DNA of 64,000 bases from NCBI GenBank assembly GCA_947631915.1, contig CANRNC010000008.1, positions 3,305-67,304 on the forward strand, read 5' to 3'. Shown here in pieces: positions 5,118 through 39,240 of the stretch. Origin of the DNA: an uncultured Clostridia bacterium (lineage in GTDB: Bacteria; Bacillota; Clostridia; TANB77; CAG-508). The position numbers and the translations under genes were made by a program. The notes below the pieces were generated by a model. That model was not told the origin of the DNA, searched no databases, and saw only the letters and a list, made by a program, of their open reading frames with translations. The stretch's first letter is position 1; every line of letters starts with the position of its first letter.

Positions 5118-5696
5118 ATGAAGGATTTAATAGAAATTAGATGGCATGGTCGTGGTGGCCAAGGTGCAAAAACAGCTTCACTTTTACTTGCGGATGCAGC
5201 ATTTAATACTGGAAAATACATTCAAGGTTTTCCCGAATATGGTCCAGAGAGAATGGGTGCTCCTATTACTGCTTATAATCGTATTAGTACAAAACCTATT
5301 ACTATTCATAGTAATATTTATGAGCCTGATTATGTAGTAGTTGTTGATGATTCTCTTCTTGAATCTGTCGATGTTACAGCTGGATTAAAGGAAGATGGAG
5401 CTATTGTTATTAATACTACCAAAGATGTTGATTACATAAAGAAGAATTTAAAAGGATATAAAGGCGAAATTTATACAATCGATGCTAGAGAAATTTCTTT
5501 GCAAACTCTTGGAAAGTATTTTCCAAATACTCCTATGCTTGCTGCAATTGTGCATGTTACAGGCATAATGAGCGATGAAGATTTTCTAGCCGATATGCAG
5601 GGTTCTTTCAAGCACAAATTTGCAAAGAAACCTGAAGTTATAGAAGGAAATATGAAGGCTTTAGAAATGGCATTAAATAAGGTGACAAAAATTTAA
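5118..5696 (+). CDS. porG: 2-oxoacid:ferredoxin oxidoreductase gamma subunit (pyruvate/ketoisovalerate type)
   Basis: RWHGRGGQGAKTASLLLADAA motif of POR/VOR gamma subunits. Confidence 0.85.
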   Translation: MKDLIEIRWHGRGGQGAKTASLLLADAAFNTGKYIQGFPEYGPERMGAPITAYNRISTKPITIHSNIYEPDYVVVVDDSLLESVDVTAGLKEDGAIVINTTKDVDYIKKNLKGYKGEIYTIDAREISLQTLGKYFPNTPMLAAIVHVTGIMSDEDFLADMQGSFKHKFAKKPEVIEGNMKALEMALNKVTKI

Positions 5697-24426: not shown

Positions 24427-27400
24427 TTATATTACGAATTTCTTAATTCCTATTATTCCTGTGCCTAATATTGTTACTACTACCATTGATAGTGTAATAT
24501 ATGTCATTGGTATTTCTCTTCCTGTTTTTATTACTAGTAAAACTGGTGCATCATCTATATCGTCTTCTCCTGGTACTTCGTTGTCTGGTGTTGAGTCTAT
24601 GTCTGGTGTATGACTTGGATTGTCGTCTTGGCTTATTTCTGCTACATTTACTTTTCTTCCTAAATTGTTTTCTCCGTTTTTCCATGTTAGTATTATTTCT
24701 ACTTCAGCGCTTTCTCCTGGTTGTAGTAGTATATCTTGTAATTGGGTTGTGGCTACTTTTCCGTCTGCTCTTATATACCATTGTGGGTTATCTTCTTGTT
24801 TAAATTCTAGTCCTGCTGGAATGTAATCTGTAATTTCTTTTGCATATCCTGCTATTTCTCCTTCGTTTGTTATTTTTATTTTGTATGCAAATTTTACTAC
24901 TACTTTACTTACATCTTTTGTTTTTAGTTCTACTTTTAGTTCTGGTTCTGGATTTTCATATCCTGTATGTCCTGATTCTATTACAGTTGTGTTTCCGTTT
25001 TCTGTTACTATTGCTTTTGTTACCCATTTTAATAGTGATAAGTCAAAGTATTTTACTTTCACATCTTCATAGTCTATATCATCTTCATGTTTTTCGTCAT
25101 TATATACTTCGTCTCTTTTTGGAACTGAATCTATATCATCATTACTGTCTTGTGATATTTGTGCTACGTTTACTAGTATTTTGCTTTCTTCTCCTACTGC
25201 TTTTACTTGATATGTTACTTTGAAGGCTATTTGCACGTCTCTATAGTCTGGATTTGTATCACTTATTCCTGTTTCCTTGTTATATGCTTTTATTAAATTA
25301 TTTCTTCCTGTTGCTTTTCCTTGTTCTTCTGATAGGTAATCTGTTACTAGATATTTTGCTTTACTTACTTCTGTAGTTTCTTGTTGATTTTCGTCTAACA
25401 TTTTCCATCCATATTGTTTGTTTATTTCATTATCTACTATAAATTGTAATCCAACTGGCACATCGTCTGTTATTTCATTTGCATACCCATCTATTTCTCC
25501 TTCATTGTATACTCTTATTGTATATGTTACTATGTCTCCTGTGCATACGTCTAATGGATCTTTTGGATGTGTATATTTTATGTTTCTTGAATCATCTAAA
25601 CTTAATTCTGGATATCTTGTTGTTACGTCTGTTGTATTTATTTTTGTTATAAATTTTCTTAATGCTAAATCAAAGTTTCCTATTACTTTTACTTTATCAT
25701 AATCATCATCATCTTCTTGTCCTGGTACAAAAGGATTATTTTCATATTCTTCTTTATAGTGTGGTAATTCCGTGTCTCCTGGAATTACTAGGTTTCCATT
25801 TGGTAATGAATCTAAATCTTGTTCTGTATTTCCTTTTGTGTCTGTGAATTTTGTTATTTCTGCTATGTTTGTTTGTATATCTCCTACTTGTGTTTTATCT
25901 GATACTTTACATCTTATTGCTACATCTATATAATTTAATGTATTTCCACCATTGTATGCTGATAATAGTTTTCCATTTGGTCTTGATGTATATATTCCTT
26001 CTGGGTCTGCACTTTCCTTTGCTGTTATTTGTGTTTTTATTTCTCGTGTATTTTCATTATATGTCCAACCATATTTTTTATTTAATTCATCTTCTTTAAG
26101 GAATTCTAAATTTGCAGGTAAATGATCTGTTATTTCACTTACATATGCATCTATGTTTCCTTCATTATATACTCTTATAATATATGTTACTGTATTTCCA
26201 ACTCCAACAGTTAGCGCTTTCTTTGGATGTGTGTATGTTGCTGTTCCAAATCCTTGCTCTGCAATTCCTGCTTTTAGTGTTGTTGTGTCTACTATTGGTT
26301 CTCTTAAGTATCTTCCATTGTCGTCCACAATTTGTCTGTCATCTACTTGTACTATGAATTTTCTTAATGCTAAATCATATTTTGGAATTGTTATTATTAC
26401 CTTTTCAAAATCATCGTCGTCTTCATTTCCTGGTATATAGTCTTTTTCTCCTATTTCATTATCTTTATATTCTTGCCATCCTTGTTCTGTTTCTGGTAAT
26501 TTTGATGTTTCTTCTTCTGATGTTAAATCTATATTATCTGGTGTTGAATCTCTATCTTTGTCTTTTTCTACTATTGGTGTTTTATTTTTATCTGCCATTC
26601 CTGTTATTTCTGCTATATTTGTTATTTTGTAATCTTCTATTATTCCGTCTTCTATATTTGGTTCTAGTACTTCACATGTTATTTGTAAATCTATATAACT
26701 TAATATATTGTTTGTTCTATCATATCCTGGTAATAATATACCCGTACCAATACTTTGTCCAACATATTGTGATAGGTTATCACTTGCCCCTGTTATTGTG
26801 GTTAATGTCGTTGATGTTGCTTTACTTTCATATCTGTCTACTTCATTTTCACCATATTCTCTTAACCATTCTACATTTTCTACATATTTTAAGTATTTTG
26901 ATAAGTAATCAGTCACTTCTGTTATGTATGCTTGTTCACTTCCTTCGTTGTATATTCTTAATGTATATGTTACCTTATCTCCTATACTTACTTTTACTGG
27001 TTCTTTTTCATGATTATAGTCTGCTGTTGTTGCTGTTGCGTTTCTTAATTTTGTAGTGTCTGGATTTGGTACTCTGTTTGTTAATTCTTCTTTTGAGTAT
27101 ACTGTTACTCCTGTTGAATCTACTACTTTACTTATAAATTTCCTTAACGCTAAATCTATATGGTCTTCTAATATTATTTCTTCATCTGTTATAGTTATTG
27201 TTATTGTATTGGTTGCATTATCTACAGATATTTTTACTTTTCCTGATGATGTACTTGTTCCATCTAATGTTGCTCGATCTATTACATAACTTAATCCATC
27301 CTCTGATTCTTTTTTCGTTACTGTTAAATTTATTGGTTGTTCATATTTTTGATATCCTAATGGTGCTTCTGTTTCTACTATTGTATATTGATCTGGTTGT

Positions 27401-28527
27401 TCTCTATTAGCTTCAGTTATATCTATTCCGTTTGGTGTTATATTTACTTTTCCATCTGATCCAGTTGTATAGTCAGGTGTAGAATTTACCGTAAATTTTG
27501 CGCCTTGTAATATTTTTCCTTTTGTATCTACTTTTTTTAATTCTATATTATATTTACCTTTTATATCTTTTTCTCTTTTTACTGTTACAATTGGTTGAGC
27601 TTCTGTATTTGCATATACTGAAATTACTGTTTTAGAATTGCTTTTTATGTCATAACTTGAGTTTTCATTTGCCCCATCAACAAAATATTTATATATCATT
27701 TTTACATAGTACTCTCTTAATTTTCCTGCTAATTGACCACTATCTTCTCCAACTTCACTTGTAAATGTTTGTTCGTAAGTTTTTAGTACTGAATCACCTT
27801 TTGCTAAATATATTTTTGGAATTCCTGTTGCATTGCCTTCGGAATCTTGAAATTCTGAAGGATTTGTTAATTTCCATATTGCTAATTGTTGAGCAACTTC
27901 AATATCTAACTCACTTATTTCTGCTTCTGTTCCTTTTACGCTTAATTCTTCCATTGAGCTTTTAATTGTTTTACCATTCATTCCTGTAATGCCTAAATCA
28001 GTGCATGGAATTTTTTCTAGGAAAGCATCTTTTTCATCTTCACCTGGTATATACATATTATCTAATATCCATACTAGTCCATGAATTGTATCTTCATTAA
28101 ATGCTTTTACTTCTGTTTTACTTGTATAAAGAGCTTTTAATGTATCTAATACTCCATTTTCTTTTAAGTTATAAGGTCCTGAATATTGACTTTGTGAAGT
28201 TCCCACTTCTGCCGTAGGTTTTTGGTTTACTTGTGCTGAAGAATTAAAATTCGTGAAATCTCCATAACCTTCTGCTAAACAATAGAACACTTCTTTTGTC
28301 TCTATTGGTGCTTGTTCATTGTATGGTTGTATATTCCATATGTATTTTAGACTATTATGCCCTTGTGATGAACTCTGGAATGTATATACATATTTTTCAC
28401 CTGAATCATCTGTTCTTTGTGGGCTTATTCCAAACTTTGTATAGTTTGTCGCTGCTTGTATACATCCCGTAAAGATTGTTAGCACTACTATTAACATTAT
28501 TCCAATTTTTAGTAGCAAATTTTTCAT
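24427..28527 (-). CDS. thioester-domain (TED) surface adhesin, 1366 aa: signal peptide, N-terminal TED (YCLAEG Cys motif, QQLAIW Gln motif), SpaA/CnaB-like Ig-fold domains, three DUF11-like repeats (DLALRKFI...), C-terminal IKTG + TM + KKFVI
   Basis: Read directly from the translation. Paralog of 29104..32817, with near-identical N-terminal about 300 aa and C-terminal about 450 aa. Confidence 0.8.
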   Translation of the reverse strand: MKNLLLKIGIMLIVVLTIFTGCIQAATNYTKFGISPQRTDDSGEKYVYTFQSSSQGHNSLKYIWNIQPYNEQAPIETKEVFYCLAEGYGDFTNFNSSAQVNQKPTAEVGTSQSQYSGPYNLKENGVLDTLKALYTSKTEVKAFNEDTIHGLVWILDNMYIPGEDEKDAFLEKIPCTDLGITGMNGKTIKSSMEELSVKGTEAEISELDIEVAQQLAIWKLTNPSEFQDSEGNATGIPKIYLAKGDSVLKTYEQTFTSEVGEDSGQLAGKLREYYVKMIYKYFVDGANENSSYDIKSNSKTVISVYANTEAQPIVTVKREKDIKGKYNIELKKVDTKGKILQGAKFTVNSTPDYTTGSDGKVNITPNGIDITEANREQPDQYTIVETEAPLGYQKYEQPINLTVTKKESEDGLSYVIDRATLDGTSTSSGKVKISVDNATNTITITITDEEIILEDHIDLALRKFISKVVDSTGVTVYSKEELTNRVPNPDTTKLRNATATTADYNHEKEPVKVSIGDKVTYTLRIYNEGSEQAYITEVTDYLSKYLKYVENVEWLREYGENEVDRYESKATSTTLTTITGASDNLSQYVGQSIGTGILLPGYDRTNNILSYIDLQITCEVLEPNIEDGIIEDYKITNIAEITGMADKNKTPIVEKDKDRDSTPDNIDLTSEEETSKLPETEQGWQEYKDNEIGEKDYIPGNEDDDDFEKVIITIPKYDLALRKFIVQVDDRQIVDDNGRYLREPIVDTTTLKAGIAEQGFGTATYTHPKKALTVGVGNTVTYIIRVYNEGNIDAYVSEITDHLPANLEFLKEDELNKKYGWTYNENTREIKTQITAKESADPEGIYTSRPNGKLLSAYNGGNTLNYIDVAIRCKVSDKTQVGDIQTNIAEITKFTDTKGNTEQDLDSLPNGNLVIPGDTELPHYKEEYENNPFVPGQEDDDDYDKVKVIGNFDLALRKFITKINTTDVTTRYPELSLDDSRNIKYTHPKDPLDVCTGDIVTYTIRVYNEGEIDGYANEITDDVPVGLQFIVDNEINKQYGWKMLDENQQETTEVSKAKYLVTDYLSEEQGKATGRNNLIKAYNKETGISDTNPDYRDVQIAFKVTYQVKAVGEESKILVNVAQISQDSNDDIDSVPKRDEVYNDEKHEDDIDYEDVKVKYFDLSLLKWVTKAIVTENGNTTVIESGHTGYENPEPELKVELKTKDVSKVVVKFAYKIKITNEGEIAGYAKEITDYIPAGLEFKQEDNPQWYIRADGKVATTQLQDILLQPGESAEVEIILTWKNGENNLGRKVNVAEISQDDNPSHTPDIDSTPDNEVPGEDDIDDAPVLLVIKTGREIPMTYITLSMVVVTILGTGIIGIKKFVI

Positions 28528-29103: not shown

Positions 29104-32100
29104 TTACAATACGAATTTCTTAATTCCTATTATTCCTGTTCCTAATATTGCTATTACTGTTGCTGTTAATCCTAGGTATTGCTTTTGTATATCTATTCCT
29201 GTTTTTATTACTAGTAAAACTGGTGCATCATCTATATCGTCTTCTCCTGGTACTTCGTTGTCCGGTGTTGAGTCTATGTCTGGTGTATGACTTGGATTGT
29301 CGTCTTGGCTTATTTCTGCTACGTTTACTTTTCTTCCTAAGTTGTTTTCTCCGTTTTTCCATGTTAGTATTATTTCAACTTCTGCACTTTCTCCTGGTTG
29401 TAGTAGTACATCTTGTAATTGTGTTGTGGCTACTTTTCCGTCTGCTCTTACATACCATGCTGGATTATCTTCTTGTTTAAATTCTAGTCCTGCTGGAATG
29501 TAATCTGTAATTTCTTTTGCATATCCTGCTATTTCTCCTTCGTTTGTTATTTTTATTTTGTATGCAAATTTTACTACTACTTTATTTACATCTTTTGACT
29601 TTATCTCTACTTTTAAGTCTGGTTCTGGATTTTCATATCCTGTATGTCCTGATTCTGTTACTGTCGTTTTTCCGTTTTCTGTTACTATCGCTTTGGTTAC
29701 CCATTTTAATAGTGATAAGTCAAAGTATTTTACTTTTACGTCTTCATAGTCTATATCATCTTCATGTTTTTCGTCATTATATACTTCGTCTCTTTTTGGA
29801 ACTGAATCTATGTCGTCATCGCTGTCTTTTGATATTTGTGCTACGTTTACTAGTATTCTACTTTCTTCTCCTACTGCTTTTACTTGATATGTTACTTTGA
29901 AAGCTATTTGTACGTCTCTATAGTCTGGATTAGTATCACTTATTCCTGTTTCCTTGTTATATGCTTTTATTAAATTATTTCTTCCGGTTGCTTTTTCTTG
30001 TTCTTCTGATAAGTAATCTGTTACTAGATATTTTGCTTTGCTTACATCTGTTGTTTCTTGTTGGTTTTCGTCTAACATTTTCCATCTATATTGTTGATTT
30101 ATTTCATTATCTACTACAAATTGTAATCCAAATGGTACGTCATCTGTTATTTCATCTGCATAACCGTCTATTTCGCCTTCGTTGTATATTCTTATTGTAT
30201 ATGTTACTATGTCTCCTGTACATACGTCTAATGGATCTTTTGGATGTGTATATTTTATGTTTCCTGAATCATCTAAACTTAATTCTGGATATCTTGTTGT
30301 TACGTCTGTTGTATTTATTTTTGTTATGAATTTTCTTAATGCTAAATCAAATTTAGGACTTGTTATTATTACCTTTTCGAAATCATCATCGTCTTCGTTT
30401 CCTGGTATATAGTCTTTTTCTCCTATTTCATCATCTTTATAATCTTGCCAATCTTTTTCTGTTTTTGGTAAGTCTGGTGTTACATCATCTGGTTTTGAAT
30501 CTATATCTGTATCTACTGGATTTTGGTCTTTGTCTAACATTCCTGTTATTTCTGCTATATTTGTTATCTTATATTCTTTCTCATTATTATTCATTTCTGG
30601 TTGTAGTACTTCACATGTTATTTGTACATCTATGTAACTTATCCTATCATTTTCTTTGTCATAAGCTGGTATTAAAACTCCCCCGCTTATAGTTTTTCCG
30701 ATTAATGCTTTTAAATCATCACTTGCTCCTGTTATTATTGTAGAATTTGTTGATGTTGCTTTACTTCCATAAATGCTTTCATCGTTTTCAGTATATGTTA
30801 CATTCCATTCTTCTGTTTCTATGCATTTTAAGTATTTTGATAAATAGTCTGTTATTTCTGTTATATACGCATTTGATTGTCCTTCATTATATACTCTTAA
30901 AGTATATGTTACTTTGTCTCCAACACTTACTTTTAATGGCTCTTTTGTATGGTTATATTCTGATGTTGTTCCTGTTGCTTGTTTTAAATTGGTTGTATCT
31001 ACATTTGGGTTTCTATTTTCTAGTTGCTCATTTGTATATACCATTTCACCTTTTGTATTTACTACTTTACTTATAAATTTTCTTAATGATAAATCTATGT
31101 TGTCCTCTATAACTATTACTGTTATTGTATCCTCATCTATTTCTATTTTTACTTTTCCTGATGCTTTTGACTTTTCGTCTAGTGTTACTGTGCCTAATAC
31201 ATAGCTTTCTCCGTCTGCTGACAATTTCTTTGTTACTTCTAACACTATTGTTCCATCATATATTACATATCCGTCAGGAGCATCTATTTCAGTTAATGTG
31301 TATGTGTCTTTTTCTCCTACATTACTACTATTAATTTCTTTATCTTCAACTAAAGTTGCAAATCCATATTGATCTGTTGTATAATTTTGTCCATCTACTG
31401 TGAACGTTGCACCTTGCAATACTTCTCCTTTTGTATTTTGTTTATTTAATCTTACTGTATATGCATTCTTTTTTTCTTCATTCTTTACTGTTATTGTTAT
31501 TGTATTTGTTTCTGTATCTATCTCTACCTTTCCAGATGAACTACTCGTATCATCTAAAGTTGCCTGATCTATTACATAACTTAACCTATCATCTGATTCT
31601 TTCTTTGTGACGTGCAATTCTATTGTTCCTTTGTATTTTTTATATCCCTCTGGTGCTTTTGTTTCTACTATTGTGTATTCGTCTGTGTCAGTTATATTAT
31701 TTATTGTTACACTATCTACTTTTACTGTTCCATCTGCAGTTGTTGTGTATTTTTGCCCATTTACTGTAAATTCTGCTCCTGATAATGGAGTTCCGTCTGT
31801 TCCCTCTTTTTTTAGTATTATATCATATTCTCCTGTTAATTCTTTTTCTCTTGTTACTGTTACAATTGGTTGTGCTTCTGCATTTGCATATACTGTAATT
31901 ACTGTTTTAGAATCTGCATTTAGTGCATAGCTTTTTTCTTGAGCATCTTTTGCTCCATCAACAAAATATTTATATACCATTTTTACATAGTATCCTCTTA
32001 ATTTTCCTTGTGATTGATCTATGTCTTCGTCTTCAAGGTTTTCTGGAAATGTTAAATCATAAGTTTTTAAATCTGAACTATTTTTTGATAAATAAATGGT

Positions 32101-32817
32101 TGGAATTCCAACTGAATCTCCTTCTGAATTTTCAAATGCTGAATGATTTGTTAAATTCCATATTGCTAATTGTTGAGCTACCTCTATGTCAAAATCTGTT
32201 ATTTCAGCGTTTGTTCCTCTTACTTTCAATTCATCCATTGAACTTTTTATTGTACCACTCATTCCATTTATATCTCCTAAATTGGTACAATTAATTTTTT
32301 CTAGAAAGTTATCTTTATCATCTTCACCTGGTATGTACATATTATCTAATATCCATACTAATCCGTGAATTGTGTTCTCATTAAATGCAATTACTTCTGA
32401 TTTACCACTATAAACAACTCTTAATGCTTCCAAGACTCCACTTGCTTTTAAGTTATAAGCTTTATATTCACTTGTTGAAGCTCCTCCTGTTGTTGCAGGT
32501 TTTTGACCTACTTGTGCTGAAGAATCAAAATCCGAAAAATTTCCATAGCCTTGTGCTAAACAATAGAATACTTCATCTGTTTCTATTGGTGTTTGGTTTG
32601 TGTATGGTTTTATGTTCCATATGTATTTTAAACTATTTGAGTCTTTAGATGAACTTTGAAATGTATATACATAGGTGTCTGTTTCATCAGTTCTCTGTGG
32701 GCTTATACCAAATGTAGTATAATTTGTTGTTGCTTGTATGCAACTTGTGTTTACAGCTAATATTATTATTAATACTATTGCAATTTTTAATAAAGTTTTT
32801 TTCATGATAACTTTCAT
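29104..32817 (-). CDS. thioester-domain (TED) surface adhesin paralog, 1237 aa, same architecture with a variable middle (SpaA/CnaB-like domains), C-terminal IKTG + TM + KKFVL
   Basis: N-terminus MKKTLLKIAIVLIIILA...FYCLAQGYG...VAQQLAIW. C-terminal three DUF11-like repeats nearly identical to 24427..28527. Confidence 0.8.
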   Translation of the reverse strand: MKVIMKKTLLKIAIVLIIILAVNTSCIQATTNYTTFGISPQRTDETDTYVYTFQSSSKDSNSLKYIWNIKPYTNQTPIETDEVFYCLAQGYGNFSDFDSSAQVGQKPATTGGASTSEYKAYNLKASGVLEALRVVYSGKSEVIAFNENTIHGLVWILDNMYIPGEDDKDNFLEKINCTNLGDINGMSGTIKSSMDELKVRGTNAEITDFDIEVAQQLAIWNLTNHSAFENSEGDSVGIPTIYLSKNSSDLKTYDLTFPENLEDEDIDQSQGKLRGYYVKMVYKYFVDGAKDAQEKSYALNADSKTVITVYANAEAQPIVTVTREKELTGEYDIILKKEGTDGTPLSGAEFTVNGQKYTTTADGTVKVDSVTINNITDTDEYTIVETKAPEGYKKYKGTIELHVTKKESDDRLSYVIDQATLDDTSSSSGKVEIDTETNTITITVKNEEKKNAYTVRLNKQNTKGEVLQGATFTVDGQNYTTDQYGFATLVEDKEINSSNVGEKDTYTLTEIDAPDGYVIYDGTIVLEVTKKLSADGESYVLGTVTLDEKSKASGKVKIEIDEDTITVIVIEDNIDLSLRKFISKVVNTKGEMVYTNEQLENRNPNVDTTNLKQATGTTSEYNHTKEPLKVSVGDKVTYTLRVYNEGQSNAYITEITDYLSKYLKCIETEEWNVTYTENDESIYGSKATSTNSTIITGASDDLKALIGKTISGGVLIPAYDKENDRISYIDVQITCEVLQPEMNNNEKEYKITNIAEITGMLDKDQNPVDTDIDSKPDDVTPDLPKTEKDWQDYKDDEIGEKDYIPGNEDDDDFEKVIITSPKFDLALRKFITKINTTDVTTRYPELSLDDSGNIKYTHPKDPLDVCTGDIVTYTIRIYNEGEIDGYADEITDDVPFGLQFVVDNEINQQYRWKMLDENQQETTDVSKAKYLVTDYLSEEQEKATGRNNLIKAYNKETGISDTNPDYRDVQIAFKVTYQVKAVGEESRILVNVAQISKDSDDDIDSVPKRDEVYNDEKHEDDIDYEDVKVKYFDLSLLKWVTKAIVTENGKTTVTESGHTGYENPEPDLKVEIKSKDVNKVVVKFAYKIKITNEGEIAGYAKEITDYIPAGLEFKQEDNPAWYVRADGKVATTQLQDVLLQPGESAEVEIILTWKNGENNLGRKVNVAEISQDDNPSHTPDIDSTPDNEVPGEDDIDDAPVLLVIKTGIDIQKQYLGLTATVIAILGTGIIGIKKFVL

Positions 32818-32871
32818 TCCTTTCTAGAATATTTAAATAATACTTTTATCACATATTTAATGTTATATATA

Positions 32872-32951
32872 TATCTTAAACTATTTTTATATAAAGTCAA
32901 TGGTAGCATTTTGTTAAATAGTATATTGTGCTTTTCTTCTTCTTACGGATA
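32872..32951 (-). promoter_or_regulatory. conserved adhesin promoter module (TATCCGTAAG, N42, CCATTGACTTTAT, about 16 nt, TAAGAT)
   Basis: cttacggata at 32942..32951, ataaagtcaatgg at 32891..32903. Confidence 0.5.
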
Positions 32952-33288
32952 AAAGAAAAAAGTCAACTTTCGTGCTAACATAACATTTGTATAACATTTT
33001 AGTCCTTGTTTTGACATTTGTTTTTTATTTCTTTTCTTATCGTTATTTTTAAGCTATTTCGTGTTTTTGGCAAATTCCTTATAATTTCTTGCCTATACCA
33101 TTTTTTTCTTCATAATTATACTATATTTTAATGTGTTTTGCAACACTTTATGTAGATTTGTTGAAATTGTAAAAATTAATATTGCCTTGAAGTATTTATT
33201 GAATATTTGTAATTTTTTTAATATGTCTGCATACTATATATTATTAAAAAATGATTTTACAAAATATAAAGTTTTAATAATAATCTCT

Positions 33289-33317
33289 TGACTTTTATGC
33301 ATATCTTTGTTATTATA
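33289..33317 (+). promoter_or_regulatory. sigma-A promoter for the tRNA-Gly/tRNA-Cys pair
   Basis: TTGACT-17nt-TATTAT about 75 nt upstream of tRNA-Gly. Confidence 0.55.
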
Positions 33318-33391
33318 TTTAAGCAACACTTTTATGTGAAAGATCTTTTCAGTATCAAATTAACTACTTAATATTTGAATTTTTCTATTTT

Positions 33392-33465
33392 GCAGGTATA
33401 GTTTAGTGGTAAAACATAACCTTGCCAAGGTTAAGTTACGGGTCCGATTCCCGTTACCTGCTCCA
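33392..33465 (+). tRNA. tRNA-Gly (anticodon GCC)
   Basis: Cloverleaf by eye: acceptor gcaggta/tacctgc, anticodon loop cttGCCaag, T-arm, encoded CCA. Confidence 0.9.
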
Positions 33466-33534
33466 TAAATTATTTCAAGTATAAATGTTACCACATAAGA
33501 TATCTGTAATCGGCAAAGCCTCAACAGCTATCTT

Positions 33535-33557
33535 AGTTACCTGCTCCATAAATTATT
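33535..33557 (+). repeat. direct repeat of the tRNA-Gly 3' end (gttacctgctccataaattatt), att-like duplication
   Basis: Identical 22-23 nt at 33453..33475 (tRNA 3' end plus flank) and 33535..33557. Confidence 0.7.
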
Positions 33558-33580
33558 AAATAGTATAATTTAATATTTAT

Positions 33581-33654
33581 GGCGCCTTAGCCAAGCGGTA
33601 AGGCACGAGTCTGCAAAACTCTGATGGTCGGTCCGACTCCGACAGGCGCCTCCA
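33581..33654 (+). tRNA. tRNA-Cys (anticodon GCA)
   Basis: Acceptor ggcgcct/aggcgcc, anticodon loop tctGCAaaa, encoded CCA. Confidence 0.9.
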
Positions 33655-33664
33655 TAAAAAAATA

Positions 33665-33700
33665 AATTCCACAGATTTTTAATATTTCTGTGGAATTTTT
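33665..33700 (+). terminator. hairpin terminator, copy 1 of repeated element H (second copy at 37147..37182)
   Basis: aattccacagatttttaatatttctgtggaattttt. Confidence 0.65.
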
Positions 33701-34014
33701 GTAACTGTCGAAAGCTTTTTATATCAAGCATTTCAATTTTTTTATAATTTCTTTTAGTTTTCTACAATTTTTCAAAACTACATTAACACTACATTAACTT
33801 TCCATAAAAACTACATTAACATTTTTTACAAATATTAACAAATAAGAACTTTTTAAATAATGGTTTTTATATATAAAAAATACTCCTCCAGTTCGAATAC
33901 TTGGTTTTGAATTTATTATTTTTATGGAATATATAATATAATTTATTTGTATAAATATATTGACTTTTGCGAACATCTGTTTTATAATATAAACAAAGTT
34001 TACACAAGGAAGGA

Positions 34015-34999
34015 ATGAATTTATTTATGAATAATCTCACTAATATTGAGCCAGTAAATAAAGAATTAAATTTAGTAAAATATGAAACAATAGATATTAA
34101 GAATTTAATTTATTGCATAAGAGGAAAACAAGTTATGCTAGATAGTGATGTAGCAATGTTATATCATTATCAAACTAAAAGAATAAATGAAACAGTTACT
34201 AGAAATAAGGAAAGATTTCCAGAAAATTTTTGTTTTCAGCTAACGGAAGATGAGTTTTCATGTTTAAGGTCGCAAATTGCGACCTTATTGGAAAGCGAAG
34301 ATATGCGGTCGCAATTTGCGACCGCATGAGAAAAAAGAGAATAGCAAGAGAAATAAAAGTAAACTTCCTTATGCGTTCACAGAACAAGGTATAGCAATGC
34401 TTTCGGGTCTATTAAGAAATGAAATTGCAGTTCAAGTGAGTATAAACATAATGAATGCATTTGTTGAAATGAGAAAATTTATTTCCATAAATGGACAAGT
34501 TTTTGAAAGATTAACAAATGTTGAATATAGATTATTAGAACATGATAATAAATTCAATCAAGTATTTAATGAATTACAAAAGAATAAAGAACAAGAATTT
34601 AAACAAAAAATATTTTTTAAAGGACAAATATGGGATAGCTATGAACTAATAATTGATATTATAAAAACAGCACAAAGTAAAATAGTAATAATAGATAATT
34701 ATATAGACGATACTATTCTTAAAATGCTACAAAAGAAAAATAAAAATGTCCAAGCAATTATTTTAACTTCACAAAATTGTAATCTAACAAAACTAGATAT
34801 TAAGAAGTTTAATGAGCAATACGGGGCACTAAAAATAGCAAGAACAGATAAATTTCATGATAGATTTATTATTATAGATAACAAAGAACTTTATCATTGT
34901 GGAGCATCACTCAAAGACTTAGGTAAAAAATGTTTTGGAATTAATAAGATAGAGGGAATAGAATTTATAGAATATATAAATAAAATAATTAATTTTTGA
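34015..34999 (+). CDS. ORF6N-domain DNA-binding protein (frame broken by a single-base indel)
   Basis: IRGKQVMLDSDVAMLYHYQTKRINETVTRNKERFPENFCFQLTEDEF..LRSQIAT and ..LPYAFTEQGIAMLSGLLRNEIAVQVSINIMNAFVEMRKF are the two halves of an ORF6N domain. Removing one C in atgCGGtcg (~34306) joins them as ...SEDMGRNLRPHEKK.... Confidence 0.65.
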
Positions 35000-35172
35000 T
35001 ACCTTTATATAAGCTTAAGTATTTTATTTTTTTCTGTGTTGTAGTATAATCATTTTATCAAATAGTAAGTTCATGATTTAGAGCAATATCTTGTAATATT
35101 ATGTAAAATTTGTTATAATATTTATAATTCGTGAATACAGCGAATAAACTATTATAATGGGAGGAAAGCAGA

Positions 35173-36189
35173 ATGATGTATGAATATGCACCATGGGCAA
35201 AAGACACATTACATCGGATACTTGCTATCTCTTCAAAAAGTTTGCCTATATTAGACATTCAATTTGGAGGAGCATGTAACCTGAATTGTATCTATTGCGA
35301 CACACCAAAGTACGACCATCCTTGTTTACTAGACTTAAATTCTATTGAAAAAATCATTAACACTGGTACTATTCAATGGATTTATGCTTGTGGACTGGGA
35401 GAACCGACAGCAAAAGGCAATGTTGAAGCTTTCAAGCAAATACTAGCAATGTGTAAACGGATGTCCGTTAAAGTATCCGTATTTAGCAATTTGGTCAATC
35501 TTGATGATGAATTGCTTGACTATATCGCAAACGGAACATTACATGTTCTTTTCAAGCTTGACAGTTTCAAACCAGAAGTAATGCAATTCCTTTATGGAGC
35601 TGACAGGAGTCAGATTATTCTGAAAAACTATCAGAGACTTAAAGAAGTTGTTAGAACGAACAACGGCACAACCAATTTTGGAGCATCTATTGTTCCTACA
35701 GCAAGAAACTACGAAGAAATCTACCAAATTATTGACTGGTGTATGGAAAATCGTGTATTTCCATTATTAGGACAACTTGAGAATGCAGGTAAGTGTGCAC
35801 ATATTTTCAATGAATTGGAACTTAAGGAAGATGAATTATTAACTTTAAGACACTACATTGAAGTTAAATATGGTGTACACTATGAGATCCCAGTGTGTCC
35901 TGCAACTATTTTTGGAATACACATCACAAACACAAATCGTGTCATCGTTGATGAACGAACAGGGCTTTCATGTGGGTGGTTTTGGCTAGACGAACCTAGA
36001 ATGATTCAGATTGGTAACATTACTGATATGACTTTAGAAGAAGTAACGGCAAAAATCATTGACTATCGTAAATCAAAGTTTTCTGATGTTATCGAAACAG
36101 AAAAGTCACTTGAACCCTATCCCTTTGGTGGGTGTGGTGGAGATGCAAAGGCTTTGCTTAGCCAATATATCAGTATTTCTGATTATTGA
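35173..36189 (+). CDS. radical SAM enzyme of unknown function (QueE-like CNLNCIYCDTP motif), GC-elevated
   Basis: GGACNLNCIYCDT CxxxCxxC cluster motif, GLGEP SAM-binding motif. Three further Cys in the C-terminal third (VCPA, SCGW, GGCGGD). Local GC about 35% against about 24% in flanking genes. Confidence 0.75.
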   Translation: MMYEYAPWAKDTLHRILAISSKSLPILDIQFGGACNLNCIYCDTPKYDHPCLLDLNSIEKIINTGTIQWIYACGLGEPTAKGNVEAFKQILAMCKRMSVKVSVFSNLVNLDDELLDYIANGTLHVLFKLDSFKPEVMQFLYGADRSQIILKNYQRLKEVVRTNNGTTNFGASIVPTARNYEEIYQIIDWCMENRVFPLLGQLENAGKCAHIFNELELKEDELLTLRHYIEVKYGVHYEIPVCPATIFGIHITNTNRVIVDERTGLSCGWFWLDEPRMIQIGNITDMTLEEVTAKIIDYRKSKFSDVIETEKSLEPYPFGGCGGDAKALLSQYISISDY

Positions 36190-36316
36190 GCTACCAACCA
36201 GAAAAAGCACATGCTGCATTTGCAGAAGTGCTTTTTCTGGTTTTATGCTTTTAGATATAATATTTTGATATTTTTTTAATATTATATTATAATCATTTTA
36301 TAAAATAATAAGTTAT

Positions 36317-37030
36317 ATGGAGATATTTTATATGGTAAAGAAATATTTTGAAGATTGGAATAAATTTGAAAAAATATTTTTAATATGTGGACTATTAGTA
36401 TCAATAATATCAGCTATGATTTTTAATGGAACTGTAATTGATACTTTATATACATCACTTTATCTAATTACTGCATTATTAATGTCAAAAGGAAAAGTAG
36501 AATCTTATTTTGTAGGTTTTGTAAGTGTATTTTTCTATGGAATAATATCATATAATCAAAATTATTATGGCGAATTGATTATTACAGCATTTTTAACATT
36601 TCCTATAATGATAATAGGTATTATATCTTGGCTAAGACATCAAGATAAAGAAGATGACACAGTTATTATAAGTTCACTATCTAAAAAAGAAATAACTATA
36701 GCATTGCTTTCTCAATTAGTATTGTTTTGGATATATTATTTCTTATTAAAGGCGTTTAATACAGATTTATTAGTAATTAGTACCATTTCAGTTGTGACAA
36801 GTGTTTTAGCTAGTTATTTTGAGGCTAGAAGAAGTGAATTATCATTATTTTGCTATATAGCAAATGATTTAGTAATAATAACATTATGGTTAATTCCTAT
36901 TATAAATGGTCAAACAGAATTAATATCAGTTTTAGTTGGTCCTATATTATTATTAATAAATGATATATATGGAAGTTATAATTGGATTAGATTAAAGAAA
37001 CAGCAAAAAGAAAAAGGTATAGGAGAATAA
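36317..37030 (+). CDS. pnuC: PnuC-family nucleoside/vitamin transporter (nicotinamide riboside transporter-like)
   Basis: 237 aa, 7-8 TM. LLMSKGKVESYFVGFVSVFFYGIISYNQNYYGELIITAFLTFPIMIIGIISW matches the PnuC signature region. Confidence 0.7.
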   Translation: MEIFYMVKKYFEDWNKFEKIFLICGLLVSIISAMIFNGTVIDTLYTSLYLITALLMSKGKVESYFVGFVSVFFYGIISYNQNYYGELIITAFLTFPIMIIGIISWLRHQDKEDDTVIISSLSKKEITIALLSQLVLFWIYYFLLKAFNTDLLVISTISVVTSVLASYFEARRSELSLFCYIANDLVIITLWLIPIINGQTELISVLVGPILLLINDIYGSYNWIRLKKQQKEKGIGE

Positions 37031-37146
37031 AAACTTTCTAAAGCCACATTAATTTTTACATTCTGTGCCTTGTAAGCATTGATATAACTGAATTTATAAA
37101 AATATCAAACCGGAGTAATGCCTCCAAAGAAAAACCAAATTCCACA

Positions 37147-37466
37147 GATTTTTAAGAATTCTGTGGAATTTTTGAAAGATTTCCAGAAAATTTTTGCTTT
37201 CAATTAACACAAGATGCATTTTTAAATTTAAGGTCACAATTTGTGACCTTAAACGAAATTAATATAAATGCAGAACAAGAAAATAACTGGTCGCAAATTG
37301 CGACCAGTTCCAAAAATGAAAATAGTAAACATAGAGGTAAAAAATATATACCTTATGCGTTCACAGAACAAGGTATAGCAATGCTTTGGGATTATTAAGA
37401 TTGAAGGAATAGAATTTATAGAAAATATAAATAAAATAATTAATTTTTGATACCTTTATATAAGAT
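37147..37466 (+). pseudogene. second copy of hairpin H fused to an internally deleted remnant of the ORF6N gene
   Basis: 37183..37400 aligns to 34213..34400 and 37401..37466 aligns to 34945..35018 of the full copy. The middle about 540 nt is absent. Confidence 0.65.
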
Positions 37467-37890
37467 AGATACTTTGTTTTTCGAGATATTTTATTCTATA
37501 AATATTTATAAATTATTATAAGCTATTCGTAACATTAATTCATAAAATTTTAAATTATAAAGATATCAAGGATCATTTAGTTAAATAAAAAAATTATTAA
37601 TTTTCATATTATATATTCAAATGAAAAACTTTTAATTTTATCATATCTAAAAAATCAATAAATTTTATTAAGTTTTCTATACTAATTCCGTATAATGCAT
37701 CTAATTACACTAACATTTATTTTAATATCTTATAAGGATTGATATTTCTAAAATCTTTATATTAAGCATTTGATTTTTTTTATAATTTTCTTCAATTTTC
37801 CAAAACTACATTAATGTTTATATCTTATAACTTTTAAATATTGAAATAATTATAAGGCAGAGATAATATCTGCCTTATAATCTGTAATTA

Positions 37891-38457
37891 TTATTTTTTC
37901 AATTTCAATCCGTCTTTAAAAGCCTCTCCGACTCTTTCAGTAACTTTATAATATCCGTGTGTATATGGATCAAATGCTATTGCATTAACTAATTCAATGT
38001 CAATCTTCTCTCCATTCATTACTTTTTCATCAGCAGTAACATTAACCACTTTCCCTATGACTCCTGCTCCATACTCGTCATTTTGATATTCTATAAATTC
38101 GCATTCAAAACAAATTGGAAATTCATTTATAATTGGTGCATCTACATTTTCTGATTTTGTTGCTGTTAGCCCACTCTTTTCAAATTTATCTGATGTATTA
38201 TTTCCTGATACTACCCCAAAATAATCCGCTTCTACAACATGTTTGCTATCTGCAATACTTACTGTAAATGCCTTTCTTTCTTTTATATTTTTTACAGTTT
38301 TATGAGTTTCTGTTAAATTCAATATAACTTGATTGCTAGATAACATAGTCCCCCATGCCGCATTCATTACGTCAACACTTCCATCTTCATTATATGTTGC
38401 AATCATTAATACTGGCATTGGAAATATTGCCTCTGTATTTTTAATATTTTTTCTCAT
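37891..38457 (-). CDS. flavin reductase-like (FMN-binding split-barrel) protein
   Basis: 188 aa. PMPVLMIATYNEDGSVDVMNAAWGTM is a typical flavin reductase-like domain start. Hairpin terminator aaggcagagataatatctgcctt downstream. Confidence 0.75.
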   Translation of the reverse strand: MRKNIKNTEAIFPMPVLMIATYNEDGSVDVMNAAWGTMLSSNQVILNLTETHKTVKNIKERKAFTVSIADSKHVVEADYFGVVSGNNTSDKFEKSGLTATKSENVDAPIINEFPICFECEFIEYQNDEYGAGVIGKVVNVTADEKVMNGEKIDIELVNAIAFDPYTHGYYKVTERVGEAFKDGLKLKK

Positions 38458-38823
38458 TAAAAATTCCTCCTTTAAATTTTTATTTATATTATTATAAAAT
38501 ATATTAATAATTATTTTAGAAATAATTAAATATTTTGTTTGTATTATATCAAAAACTAATATATAAATTAATATTTTTTAATAAATTTTTATATTAATTT
38601 AAGATAATCTATTTTTCTCGTTTTATACTTATTAATTATTTAAAACATTTTAATAAATTGTATCTAGTATTTAATGAATACAAAATCATAAAGAACTAGC
38701 CTCTAACCTAAAGTATCTCTTAAATACATATATTCTTACCCTTCTTCTATCTCATGAATGTTTGAGTTTTTTTTATAATTATGCTATAATATATTTATAA
38801 AAATACCTCAGGAGGTTAATATA

Positions 38824-39240
38824 ATGAAGATCAATTTAAACTACGACACATCAAAAATGACAAAAGAAGAGCGGTTAAAGGTTCGTAAAGAGATTCAAGA
38901 GGTCTTGGATCAACTGAACCACGAATTAAAGACGGCATCATTTTCACAGCATCGGCATTTTGGTCATCCAACAATGTTTTTTGGTGTATCTTTTGATTTC
39001 GATGCTATGACTAATGAGGAATTGTTGTCAGTTCAAAGAGATGCAAGGCATTTGGCTGCAAATATCCTTATGTGGCATGACAACTTACCTGCGAAGTATA
39101 CTGATCCTGTAAAAACTTTCTTTGACGATGTAGAGTTTAACTTTGCAAAAATGAGTAAAAAGGACTTGTCAAATTCTAAGGATGAATGCCATCGCTTGCT
39201 GACTAACATTACGAAGCAATGTCTCATTCGTAAGCTCTAA
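38824..39240 (+). CDS. hypothetical protein, GC-elevated (about 38%)
   Basis: 138 aa, RBS aggaggttaatataATG, no recognisable motifs. Confidence 0.5.
   Translation: MKINLNYDTSKMTKEERLKVRKEIQEVLDQLNHELKTASFSQHRHFGHPTMFFGVSFDFDAMTNEELLSVQRDARHLAANILMWHDNLPAKYTDPVKTFFDDVEFNFAKMSKKDLSNSKDECHRLLTNITKQCLIRKL

Follow-up and report, generated by a model that had tools for sequence, protein, structure and literature searches.

A probably composite, recombinase-less islet beside a tRNA-Cys gene of an uncultured Clostridia bacterium carries a compositionally foreign radical SAM gene

Cis-mobilizable elements (CIMEs) are remnants of integrative elements that are flanked by attachment (att) sites and lack a recombinase of their own. 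A locus resembling them lies in a stretch of 64,000 nucleotides from an uncultured Clostridia bacterium (GenBank assembly GCA_947631915.1, contig CANRNC010000008.1, positions 3,305 to 67,304), which is termed the window below. Next to genes for tRNA-Gly(GCC) and tRNA-Cys(GCA), the window contains an ORF6N-domain gene, a gene for a radical SAM (S-adenosylmethionine; rSAM) enzyme, pnuC encoding a PnuC-family transporter, and a decayed second ORF6N copy (Table 1). The original prediction, made from the sequence alone, took the rSAM enzyme and the transporter for a pair serving the salvage or modification of a nucleoside-like metabolite. Our analysis points to a different origin: the locus is probably a composite islet without recombinase that was built 3' of tRNA-Cys by successive insertion and decay, and into which a foreign rSAM gene was recently inserted, separately from pnuC.

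The comparison with a sister lineage carries this reading. A search with PnuC recovered the loci L048 (NCBI assembly) and L049-L051 (ENA), which are collinear with the window over a SpaA-type surface protein gene, tRNA-Gly, tRNA-Cys, ORF6N, pnuC (99% amino acid identity), an ABC-F gene, and the region past it. In these loci pnuC follows 78 nt after ORF6N, no rSAM gene lies between the two, and the sequence corresponding to window positions 35054-36304 is absent. To the left of this gap, L048 7775-7975 shows 93.6% identity to window 34852-35053, and to the right, L048 7974-8807 shows 95% identity to window 36305-37128. A three-way alignment of the junctions revealed a single 44-nt promoter/leader segment in L048, named D9 and followed by the ribosome-binding site of pnuC, and two D9 copies in the window. 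Since L048 has one D9 where the window has D9a, 1.2 kb of extra DNA and D9b, the rSAM gene represents a lineage-specific insertion into the ORF6N-pnuC interval. The expectation that the cassette would be variably present among relatives was borne out by these loci, which also differ from the window in the interval between tRNA-Cys and ORF6N and in the region downstream of pnuC. Three independent conspecific assemblies of the window locus (L001, L056, and L058) contain the window junctions at 99.1-99.7% identity, which therefore excludes a chimeric assembly. A flavin reductase was rejected as a synteny anchor, being 89-93% conserved across unrelated contexts. Neither the flavin reductase of the window nor P0121 had a match when looked up exactly.

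Base composition also sets the two neighbors apart. Compared with 43 window genes (mean GC content 0.284 ± 0.043, mean GC content at third codon positions (GC3) 0.155 ± 0.052), the rSAM gene has a GC content of 0.364 and a GC3 of 0.292, whereas pnuC has values of 0.232 and 0.113. The rSAM gene is compositionally foreign; of the pair that had been predicted to be GC-elevated, only this member is, and pnuC looks native.

The extent of the mobile DNA became visible in 40 rSAM loci, which are contigs from a one-genome-per-species GTDB set that encode relatives of the window enzyme. At these loci, the DNA resembles that of the window only over about 35077-36265, a block comprising promoter, leader of about 55 nt, coding sequence, and terminator, which leaves about 90 nt before and about 80 nt after the rSAM gene. 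This block is common to L002, L003, L004, L006, and L011 at 78-87% nucleotide identity in otherwise unrelated contexts. Three promoter-like sites were found in total, and that of pnuC (TTGATA-17-TATAAT) lies past the rSAM terminator. Owing to this terminator and the separate promoter-like site, rSAM and pnuC are predicted to form separate transcription units; the predicted signals do not fit a single one. A riboswitch upstream of 35173, for which a search had been proposed, did not emerge: an Rfam scan of positions 32800-38900 at E ≤ 10 placed only the two tRNAs above the gathering threshold and gave no match in the leader, whose fold shows no significant structure (z-score -0.53). Two sequences within 35091-35172, ATTATGTAAAAT of the promoter spacer and the short TTCGnnnTACAGCGAA of the leader, are conserved in the corresponding leaders of L002-L008 and L011, and they are kept even where the coding sequence of the cassette is only 73% identical. 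This conservation may reflect an operator or an RNA element below riboswitch size.

Several rSAM sequences related to that of the window are incomplete. In L056 the gene has a 16-nt frameshifting deletion (corresponding to window 35976-35991) inside the conserved SCGWFW motif, and in L058 a 9-nt in-frame deletion (corresponding to 35451-35459). Thus, two of the four conspecific assemblies have small deletions, which may represent decay or assembly errors, as the coverage of L056 and L058 is low (2.6-3.6x). If real, they suggest relaxed selection. Isolated fragments comprising the rSAM 3' end and terminator were found in L039 (2256-2454, 90% nucleotide identity) and L041 (1003-1077, 75%); they are evidence that the cassette was gained and has decayed in other genomes.

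The architecture of the islet fits its assembly at the tRNA-Cys 3' end. It is bracketed by a direct repeat of 57 nt with about 88% identity between the copies. The repeat begins within tRNA-Cys, where GCCTCCA at 33648 matches 37120, and continues into a hairpin termed H (33657-33704), which recurs at 37130-37177 with 90% identity; both copies fold into a 12-bp stem followed by a U-run. Similarly, X 33718-33767 recurs at 37756-37805 with 82% identity, and segments of ORF6N are repeated at 37174-37258, 37333-37390, and 37380-37481. All of the H, X, and ORF6N repeats that had been predicted are present, with identities of 81-90%, and recur within 37130-37818. Motifs of the ACTACATTAA type mark the module borders, as they occur before ORF6N (in X), past the pnuC stop codon, and at X'. 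In L048, a 24-nt exact match to X directly follows the pnuC stop codon, and the ORF6N-pnuC module is bracketed by repeats of about 115 nt that start with the tRNA-Cys 3'-end fragment CGACAnnGCCTCCAAA and are present in three copies. Bracketing repeats of this kind are the hallmark of an element integrated into the 3' end of a tRNA gene, and the islet resembles a CIME-like remnant. Of the hallmarks of a tRNA island or CIME, flanking repeats of a tRNA 3' end and variable presence were found and an integrase was not, which agrees with the predicted integrase-less, tRNA-adjacent islet with duplicated tRNA ends.

The two ORF6N copies had been described as one full copy and one remnant. Both exist, but the supposedly full copy is split by a frameshift: three-frame translation gave two parts, 34015-34329 and 34277-34999, with a stop after RSQFATA, just past the second RSQ[IF]AT motif, where reading resumes in another frame. 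This site lies outside the coverage of L001, L056, and L058, and a sequencing error is possible. The product matches PF10543 with 88 bits, and its two parts match the PADLOC profile PDLC04869 (PDC-S05, a candidate anti-phage defense family) with 103.6 and 280.4 bits at profile positions 8-85 and 79-297 of 306, which amounts to a nearly full-length match in an interrupted reading frame. The middle part of the right remnant is 86.7% identical to the ORF6N gene of L048 versus 74% to the left copy, and in the tail the left copy is nearer to L048 (93%) than the right copy (88%). Because of this mosaic closeness to L048, the two copies in the window represent diverged alleles rather than a recent duplication in place. 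Both contain a perfect or near-perfect 17-nt palindrome, GGTCGCAA(A/T)TTGCGACC, with four copies in total (34268-34284, 34307-34323, 37232-37248, and 37289-37305) that encode RSQ[IF]AT; the frameshift of the left copy lies just past the second one. A parallel arrangement was found in L005, in which an ORF6N gene, the rSAM gene, and two further genes are followed by an ORF6N 3' remnant. ORF6N repeats thus flank an rSAM-containing segment in both loci, as predicted for the window, and the ORF6N copies seem to act as recombination substrates. With regard to the proposal that they mediated recombination or capture of the cassette, rearrangement is plausible in the light of the L005 parallel.

In the favored scenario, the base module would be ORF6N-pnuC, bracketed by repeats of the tRNA-Cys 3' end and hairpin H, with an older second ORF6N copy that decayed to its right. 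In this lineage only, a foreign cassette of 1.24 kb, extending from its own promoter to its own terminator, would have entered between ORF6N and pnuC, possibly by site-specific insertion or by homologous exchange with a donor flanked by D9-like sequences. The insertion would have duplicated the pnuC promoter/leader, leaving pnuC with a promoter of its own. Since pnuC retains its promoter and rSAM has its own promoter and terminator, we regard the genes as separate units that are adjacent by accident. The rSAM product itself probably carries out a stand-alone radical modification, and the trait looks like an accessory one, such as defense, resistance, or tailoring.

Several observations weigh against this scenario. 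L048-L051 diverge from the window by 5-29% in the flanking DNA and represent a sister lineage rather than strains of the same population. The D9 copies are just 82% identical, and direct repeats flanking the cassette were sought at the other rSAM loci and not found. The islet contains no recombinase or relaxase gene and, within 33655-37830, no unassigned open reading frame (ORF) of ≥ 60 amino acids, so that the route of entry is one that we infer. Neither a serine recombinase nor a Mob homolog nor the small gene associated with the mobile elements described below was found across the 64-kb window, and the end motif CTGTTCGAACTTT of those elements is absent from the islet. Finally, H, X, and ORF6N are not arranged in the same order in the two repeat units, and simple tandem accretion would require extra deletions.

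Table 1. Coordinates of the islet features in the window and of candidate end-motif sites at related loci.
Feature	Position	Strand	Remarks
tRNA-Gly(GCC)	33392-33465	+	ARAGORN; Rfam tRNA 70.8 bits
22-nt repeat copy 1	33453-33474	+	3' terminus of tRNA-Gly (13 nt, with CCA) and the next 9 nt
22-nt repeat copy 2	33536-33557	+	with the preceding 61 nt makes up 83 nt of additional sequence between tRNA-Gly and tRNA-Cys; att-like micro-scar
tRNA-Cys(GCA)	33581-33654	+	ARAGORN, Rfam
Left bracketing repeat	33648-33704	+	last 7 nt of tRNA-Cys (GCCTCCA) and terminator-like hairpin H; dG -15 kcal/mol, z -4.6
X block	33718-33825	+	three ACTACATTAA(C) units
ORF6N-domain gene	34015-34999	+	PF10543, PADLOC PDC-S05 homolog; frameshift near 34330; promoter-like site 33960-33988
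D9a, native pnuC promoter/leader	35028-35071	+	matches the single L048 copy
Lineage-specific insertion, 1,243 nt	35072-36314	+	absent from L048-L051; ends with D9b
TG-extended promoter of rSAM	35091-35119	+	predicted
rSAM coding sequence, 338 amino acids	35173-36189	+	twitch-like C-terminal domain; CX3CX2C at residues 35-42; invariant Cys 242, 267, 321
rSAM terminator	36196-36242	+	dG -31.7 kcal/mol, z -7.2
D9b, second pnuC promoter/leader copy	36271-36314	+	82% identity to D9a; same ribosome-binding site follows
pnuC, 232 amino acids from called start	36332-37030	+	nicotinamide riboside transporter family; promoter-like site 36265-36293; compositionally native
Degenerate X-type motif AAACTTTCTAAAGCCACATTAA	37031-37060	+	immediately past pnuC stop codon
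Right bracketing repeat	37120-37177	+	tRNA-Cys 3'-end copy (GCCTCCA) and hairpin H'; aligned to 33648-33704
Decayed second ORF6N copy	37174-37481	+	5' part lost up to H'; internal deletion of ~520 nt; 3' end and tail kept
X' block	37756-37818	+	single ACTACATTAA unit
CTG[TC]TCGAACTTT sites	L007 3409-3421; L017 8254-8266, 1859-1871; L018 6737-6749; L022 10966-10978; L031 2666-2678; L003 11377-11389

Other parts of the window differ between the lineages as well. Upstream of the tRNA pair, two paralogous SpaA/Cna-B-type surface proteins of 1366 and 1237 amino acids are encoded on the reverse strand (24427-28527 and 29104-32817), where L048 has one version of 1749 amino acids; between the lineages, the alignment of these genes reaches just 66-78%. 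Downstream of the islet, a forward ORF of 138 amino acids (38824-39240) matches no family, and its GC3 of 0.396 exceeds that of every other window gene (mean 0.155); only its first ~130 nt have a match in L048. It is probably another foreign gene.

The rSAM protein has the length and motifs that had been read from the sequence: it carries CNLNCIYCDTPKY and CGLGEPT, and its cluster motif is CNLNCIYC. The only Pfam match was the generic PF04055 (45.2 bits, cut-off 29.5), which places it in the superfamily, and all NCBIfam matches were far under their cut-offs, e.g., 43.6 versus 380 bits for a W-cofactor maturase and 32 versus 284 bits for MoaA. In 26 homologs, the CX3CX2C motif and the cysteine residues C242, C267, and C321 are invariant. 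An AlphaFold2 model (predicted local distance difference test score 87) contains strands at residues 248-251 and 256-260 and a helix at 288-312. Its top fold matches were SPASM/twitch enzymes, and the canonical seven-cysteine SPASM motif is absent. C242, C267, and C321 probably hold a twitch-like auxiliary Fe-S cluster, in which one coordination position may be open, as it is in MoaA.

Known families were tried and rejected. As QueE, the protein reached 19.3 bits with TIGR03963 (cut-off 260.1), covering residues 34-103 only, and neither QueE nor queuine lyase was among its closest structural relatives, so the suggested analogy to QueE or to a queuosine-salvage lyase fails in both sequence and fold. 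As viperin, it reached 20.6 bits with NF038283 (cut-off 180) and 32.5 bits with the pVip profile of PADLOC at profile positions 8-161 of 257. A function as a maturase of ribosomally synthesized and post-translationally modified peptides (RiPPs) was also rejected, as the core starts at about residue 25 with no N-terminal recognition domain and no conserved small neighboring gene was found. A profile search of 1.84 billion cluster representatives at E ≤ 1e-30 delimited a family of 94 clusters at 50% identity, beyond which the scores drop sharply to those of generic rSAM proteins. No homologs were found in plasmid and phage collections.

Clues to the chemistry come from fusions and neighbors. Members of the family are fused to a class-V aminotransferase/cysteine desulfurase (three clusters), a class I methyltransferase, a GNAT domain, an APH-type kinase, and, in P0413, a CAP12/Pycsar TIR domain. 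The neighbors are heterogeneous: when the 113 genes that lie no more than two positions from rSAM at the 40 loci were scanned with Pfam, they included five GNATs, four SDRs, and four Mob_Pre relaxases, besides MetK, TyrRS, APH, NUDIX, Fic, UDG, PP2C, and an MFS fragment; NCBIfam names for these genes gave generic SDR entries as top results only. A class I SAM methyltransferase adjoins rSAM in 8/40 loci, and in L030 the gene stands beside those for a cysteine desulfurase, a thioredoxin/ferredoxin-like protein, and a methyltransferase. Our best guess from these associations is sulfur insertion (thiolation) or another cluster-consuming radical reaction on a common small molecule or nucleotide, which would be followed by methylation in some genomes. 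The link to cysteine desulfurase could also be explained by Fe-S cluster supply rather than sulfur donation. A more specific proposal, which we consider speculative and doubtful as a whole, is a new twitch-type class in which the three-cysteine cluster, replenished by the desulfurase, inserts sulfur into a common small molecule or nucleotide, partner enzymes in some genomes methylate, acetylate, or phosphorylate the product, and the gene travels between gut Firmicutes as a one-gene cassette on serine-recombinase elements that target tRNA genes, conferring an adaptive trait such as phage defense or chemical resistance.

At other loci the rSAM gene is part of recognizable mobile elements. Genes for a large serine recombinase and a Mob_Pre (MobV-type) protein flank it in L007, L017, L018, L021, L022, and L031. 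Genes for tRNA-Gly and/or tRNA-Cys are close to rSAM in L007, L008, L014, L017, L018, and L022; the tRNA pair of the window, tRNA-Gly(GCC) with tRNA-Cys, is found again in L007 and L017, L018 has tRNA-Gly(GCC), L008 and L022 have tRNA-Gly(TCC), and a tRNA-Thr gene was found in L005. The ends of the serine-recombinase/MobV elements are marked by a tRNA 3' end or fragment, about 8 nt, and the motif CTG[TC]TCGAACTTT, which is a candidate for the att site of this element family; partial copies of the tRNA end occur at the distal ends in L017, L031, and L003. Elements with this motif carry a small conserved gene of about 92 amino acids. The rSAM family moves horizontally between Firmicutes of the gut, and it is frequently carried by serine-recombinase/MobV elements located next to tRNA genes. 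A literature search for radical SAM in combination with integrative mobilizable elements and serine recombinase found nothing.

What such cargo might do was considered in two alternatives. The rSAM enzyme could confer resistance or detoxification by acting on an antibiotic, a xenobiotic, or a drug target, traveling with genes of the drug-modifying type on integrative mobilizable elements. The recurrence of GNAT, APH-family kinase, TehB-like methyltransferase, PNPOx-like, and SDR proteins as neighbors or fusion partners and the location on serine-recombinase/MobV elements fit this idea, but none of the neighbors matched a named resistance determinant, the top names being those of generic SDRs, and the missing plasmid homologs also argue against it. 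We consider it unlikely.

An anti-phage function is rather unlikely, too. According to this explanation, rSAM is a viperin-like single-gene defense enzyme that produces modified nucleotides or disrupts replication in another way, and the islet with its ORF6N/PDC-S05 gene is a small defense islet. The self-contained cassette from promoter to terminator, its transport by mobile elements, and the CAP12/Pycsar TIR fusion mentioned above would be in line with this. Defense genes lie within two genes of rSAM in the window and in L003, L005, L016, L022, and L031. At L003 8001-10731, a complete Thoeris system (ThsB 379 bits, ThsA 435 bits) directly follows an rSAM homolog with 92% amino acid identity; L005 has PDC-S05 together with PDC-S01, L016 a type II methyltransferase, L022 an AriA/OLD-like ATPase, and L031, like the window, PDC-S05. 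For one representative of PDC-S05, protection of E. coli from T7, T5, and T4 has been reported (bioRxiv 10.1101/2024.09.26.614923). On the other hand, the pVip match is limited to the generic rSAM core, the score with NF038283 is far below its cut-off, and viperins lack a cysteine-rich twitch domain. Many of the neighbors (SDR, GNAT, APH, methyltransferase, MetK, TyrRS, UDG) are not defense genes, the phage and plasmid collections contain no homolog, and two of the four conspecific assemblies have the small deletions described above.

With respect to the transporter, the predicted identity was confirmed, as PnuC passes the cut-offs of PF04973 (98.8 bits, cut-off 27.3) and TIGR01528 (83.7 bits, cut-off 42.45). 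The proposal that rSAM and PnuC constitute a co-acquired module for salvage or modification of a nucleoside-like metabolite, analogous to queuosine-precursor salvage, is very unlikely. In its favor, the genes are adjacent on the same strand, and this arrangement is repeated in L001, L056, and L058. However, the sibling genomes have ORF6N-pnuC without rSAM, the compositions of the two genes differ, separate promoters and a strong terminator between the genes are predicted, there is no riboswitch match, and QueE and queuine lyase are poor matches. The co-occurrence across genomes that the proposal implies was not found either: neither tblastn nor phmmer nor the Pfam scan of the 113 neighbors detected a PnuC gene near rSAM in any of the 40 loci (0/40), and PnuC orthologs are present without rSAM in L048-L055. 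Publications on radical SAM together with PnuC yielded incidental co-mentions only. The salvage-pair interpretation is largely refuted by these comparative data, and the adjacency of rSAM and pnuC is an accident of insertion and does not reflect a pathway.

Nevertheless, some room for a queuosine-related role of PnuC is left by L052-L054 (6924-8699), in which PnuC orthologs with 94% amino acid identity are encoded 43 nt downstream of a gene for a fusion of QueH (epoxyqueuosine reductase) and GNAT. Import of a queuosine-related compound by this PnuC clade, independently of rSAM, is a possibility. The pnuC neighborhood in L052-L054 comprises MetK-TyrRS-RpiA-RuvB, with a RhuM-Fic gene downstream, and one of the loci with a 94% identical PnuC ortholog has two serine recombinases upstream.

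The duplicated tRNA-Gly 3' end, which had been predicted to be the footprint of cassette integration, does exist as exact 22-nt copies. The 22-mer GTTACCTGCTCCATAAATTATT occurs exactly twice in the window and had no match in shuffled sequence. The two copies enclose just 61 nt, and an intact tRNA-Cys separates them from the cassette, which they therefore cannot bracket; the duplicate is an independent 83-nt scar within the Gly-Cys spacer. The idea that a single element, integrated into tRNA-Gly with the 22-nt repeats as attL and attR, extends all the way to X' is refuted by the repeat coordinates and has next to no probability. In its favor, the repeat is exact and includes the tRNA-Gly 3' end, and related mobile elements are located at tRNA-Gly 3' ends. 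Against it, the copies are only 83 nt apart and both upstream of an intact tRNA-Cys, the window holds no third copy, and L048 has the ORF6N-pnuC module without this duplication. No match of the 22-mer was found in viral contigs, and a metagenome search gave a single match, L047, which comes from an unrelated organism and has just TAAATTATTT between its neighboring genes for tRNA-Gly and tRNA-Cys. In L048, the Gly-Cys spacer (5265-5409) repeats 16 nt of the tRNA-Cys 5' end exactly, and about 100 nt including CTGTTCGAAC come next; this scar is unlike the 83-nt unit of the window. Such differing scars suggest that DNA has been inserted and lost at this tRNA pair more than once.

In summary, the enzyme-transporter pair at this tRNA hotspot consists of unrelated modules that were joined by a recent insertion, which calls for caution in genome interpretation. 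As a genomic structure, the islet is nothing out of the ordinary, and the remaining interest lies in the mobile, uncharacterized rSAM family and its fusions. The analysis yielded a rare rSAM family without assigned function that is mobile between Clostridia, Bacilli, Erysipelotrichales, and Tenericutes-like gut bacteria, whose domain fusions offer testable leads on its chemistry, and it outlined a family of serine-recombinase/MobV elements with a recognizable end motif at tRNA 3' ends.

Compared with CIMEs and other tRNA-linked islets, the islet of the window likewise directly follows a tRNA gene on its 3' side, has direct repeats that include the tRNA 3' end at both borders, and has no integrase. 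It also shares tandem accretion of the repeats, as seen from the three copies in L048, and a cargo that varies between close relatives. It differs in that no cognate integrative element or recombinase was identified for its repeats and in that its units are rearranged and decayed. With the serine-recombinase/MobV integrative mobilizable elements of Firmicutes, which carry the same rSAM family in the six loci named above, the window shares only the cargo gene: recombinase, relaxase, and end motif are all absent.

The gene products can be compared with known proteins in the same way. PnuC of the window resembles nicotinamide riboside transporters to the point of passing the TIGR01528 equivalog cut-off, but its substrate is putative, and close orthologs elsewhere follow the QueH-GNAT gene. 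Like QueE and queuine lyase, the rSAM enzyme is a member of the radical SAM superfamily and has CDT residues after the cluster motif. It differs from viperin and the prokaryotic viperins (pVips) by the extra cysteine-rich C-terminal domain, and the nucleotide-binding C-terminal part of pVips is unmatched. From the twitch/SPASM enzymes (SkfB, SuiB, anSME, BtrN, and MoaA-type proteins), to which it is 15-16% identical, it is set apart by three invariant cysteines (CX24CX53C) in place of the seven-cysteine motif and by having no RiPP-recognition domain, no precursor peptide nearby, and no named NCBIfam family; with them it shares the CX3CX2C core and a C-terminal β-hairpin and helix with conserved cysteines.

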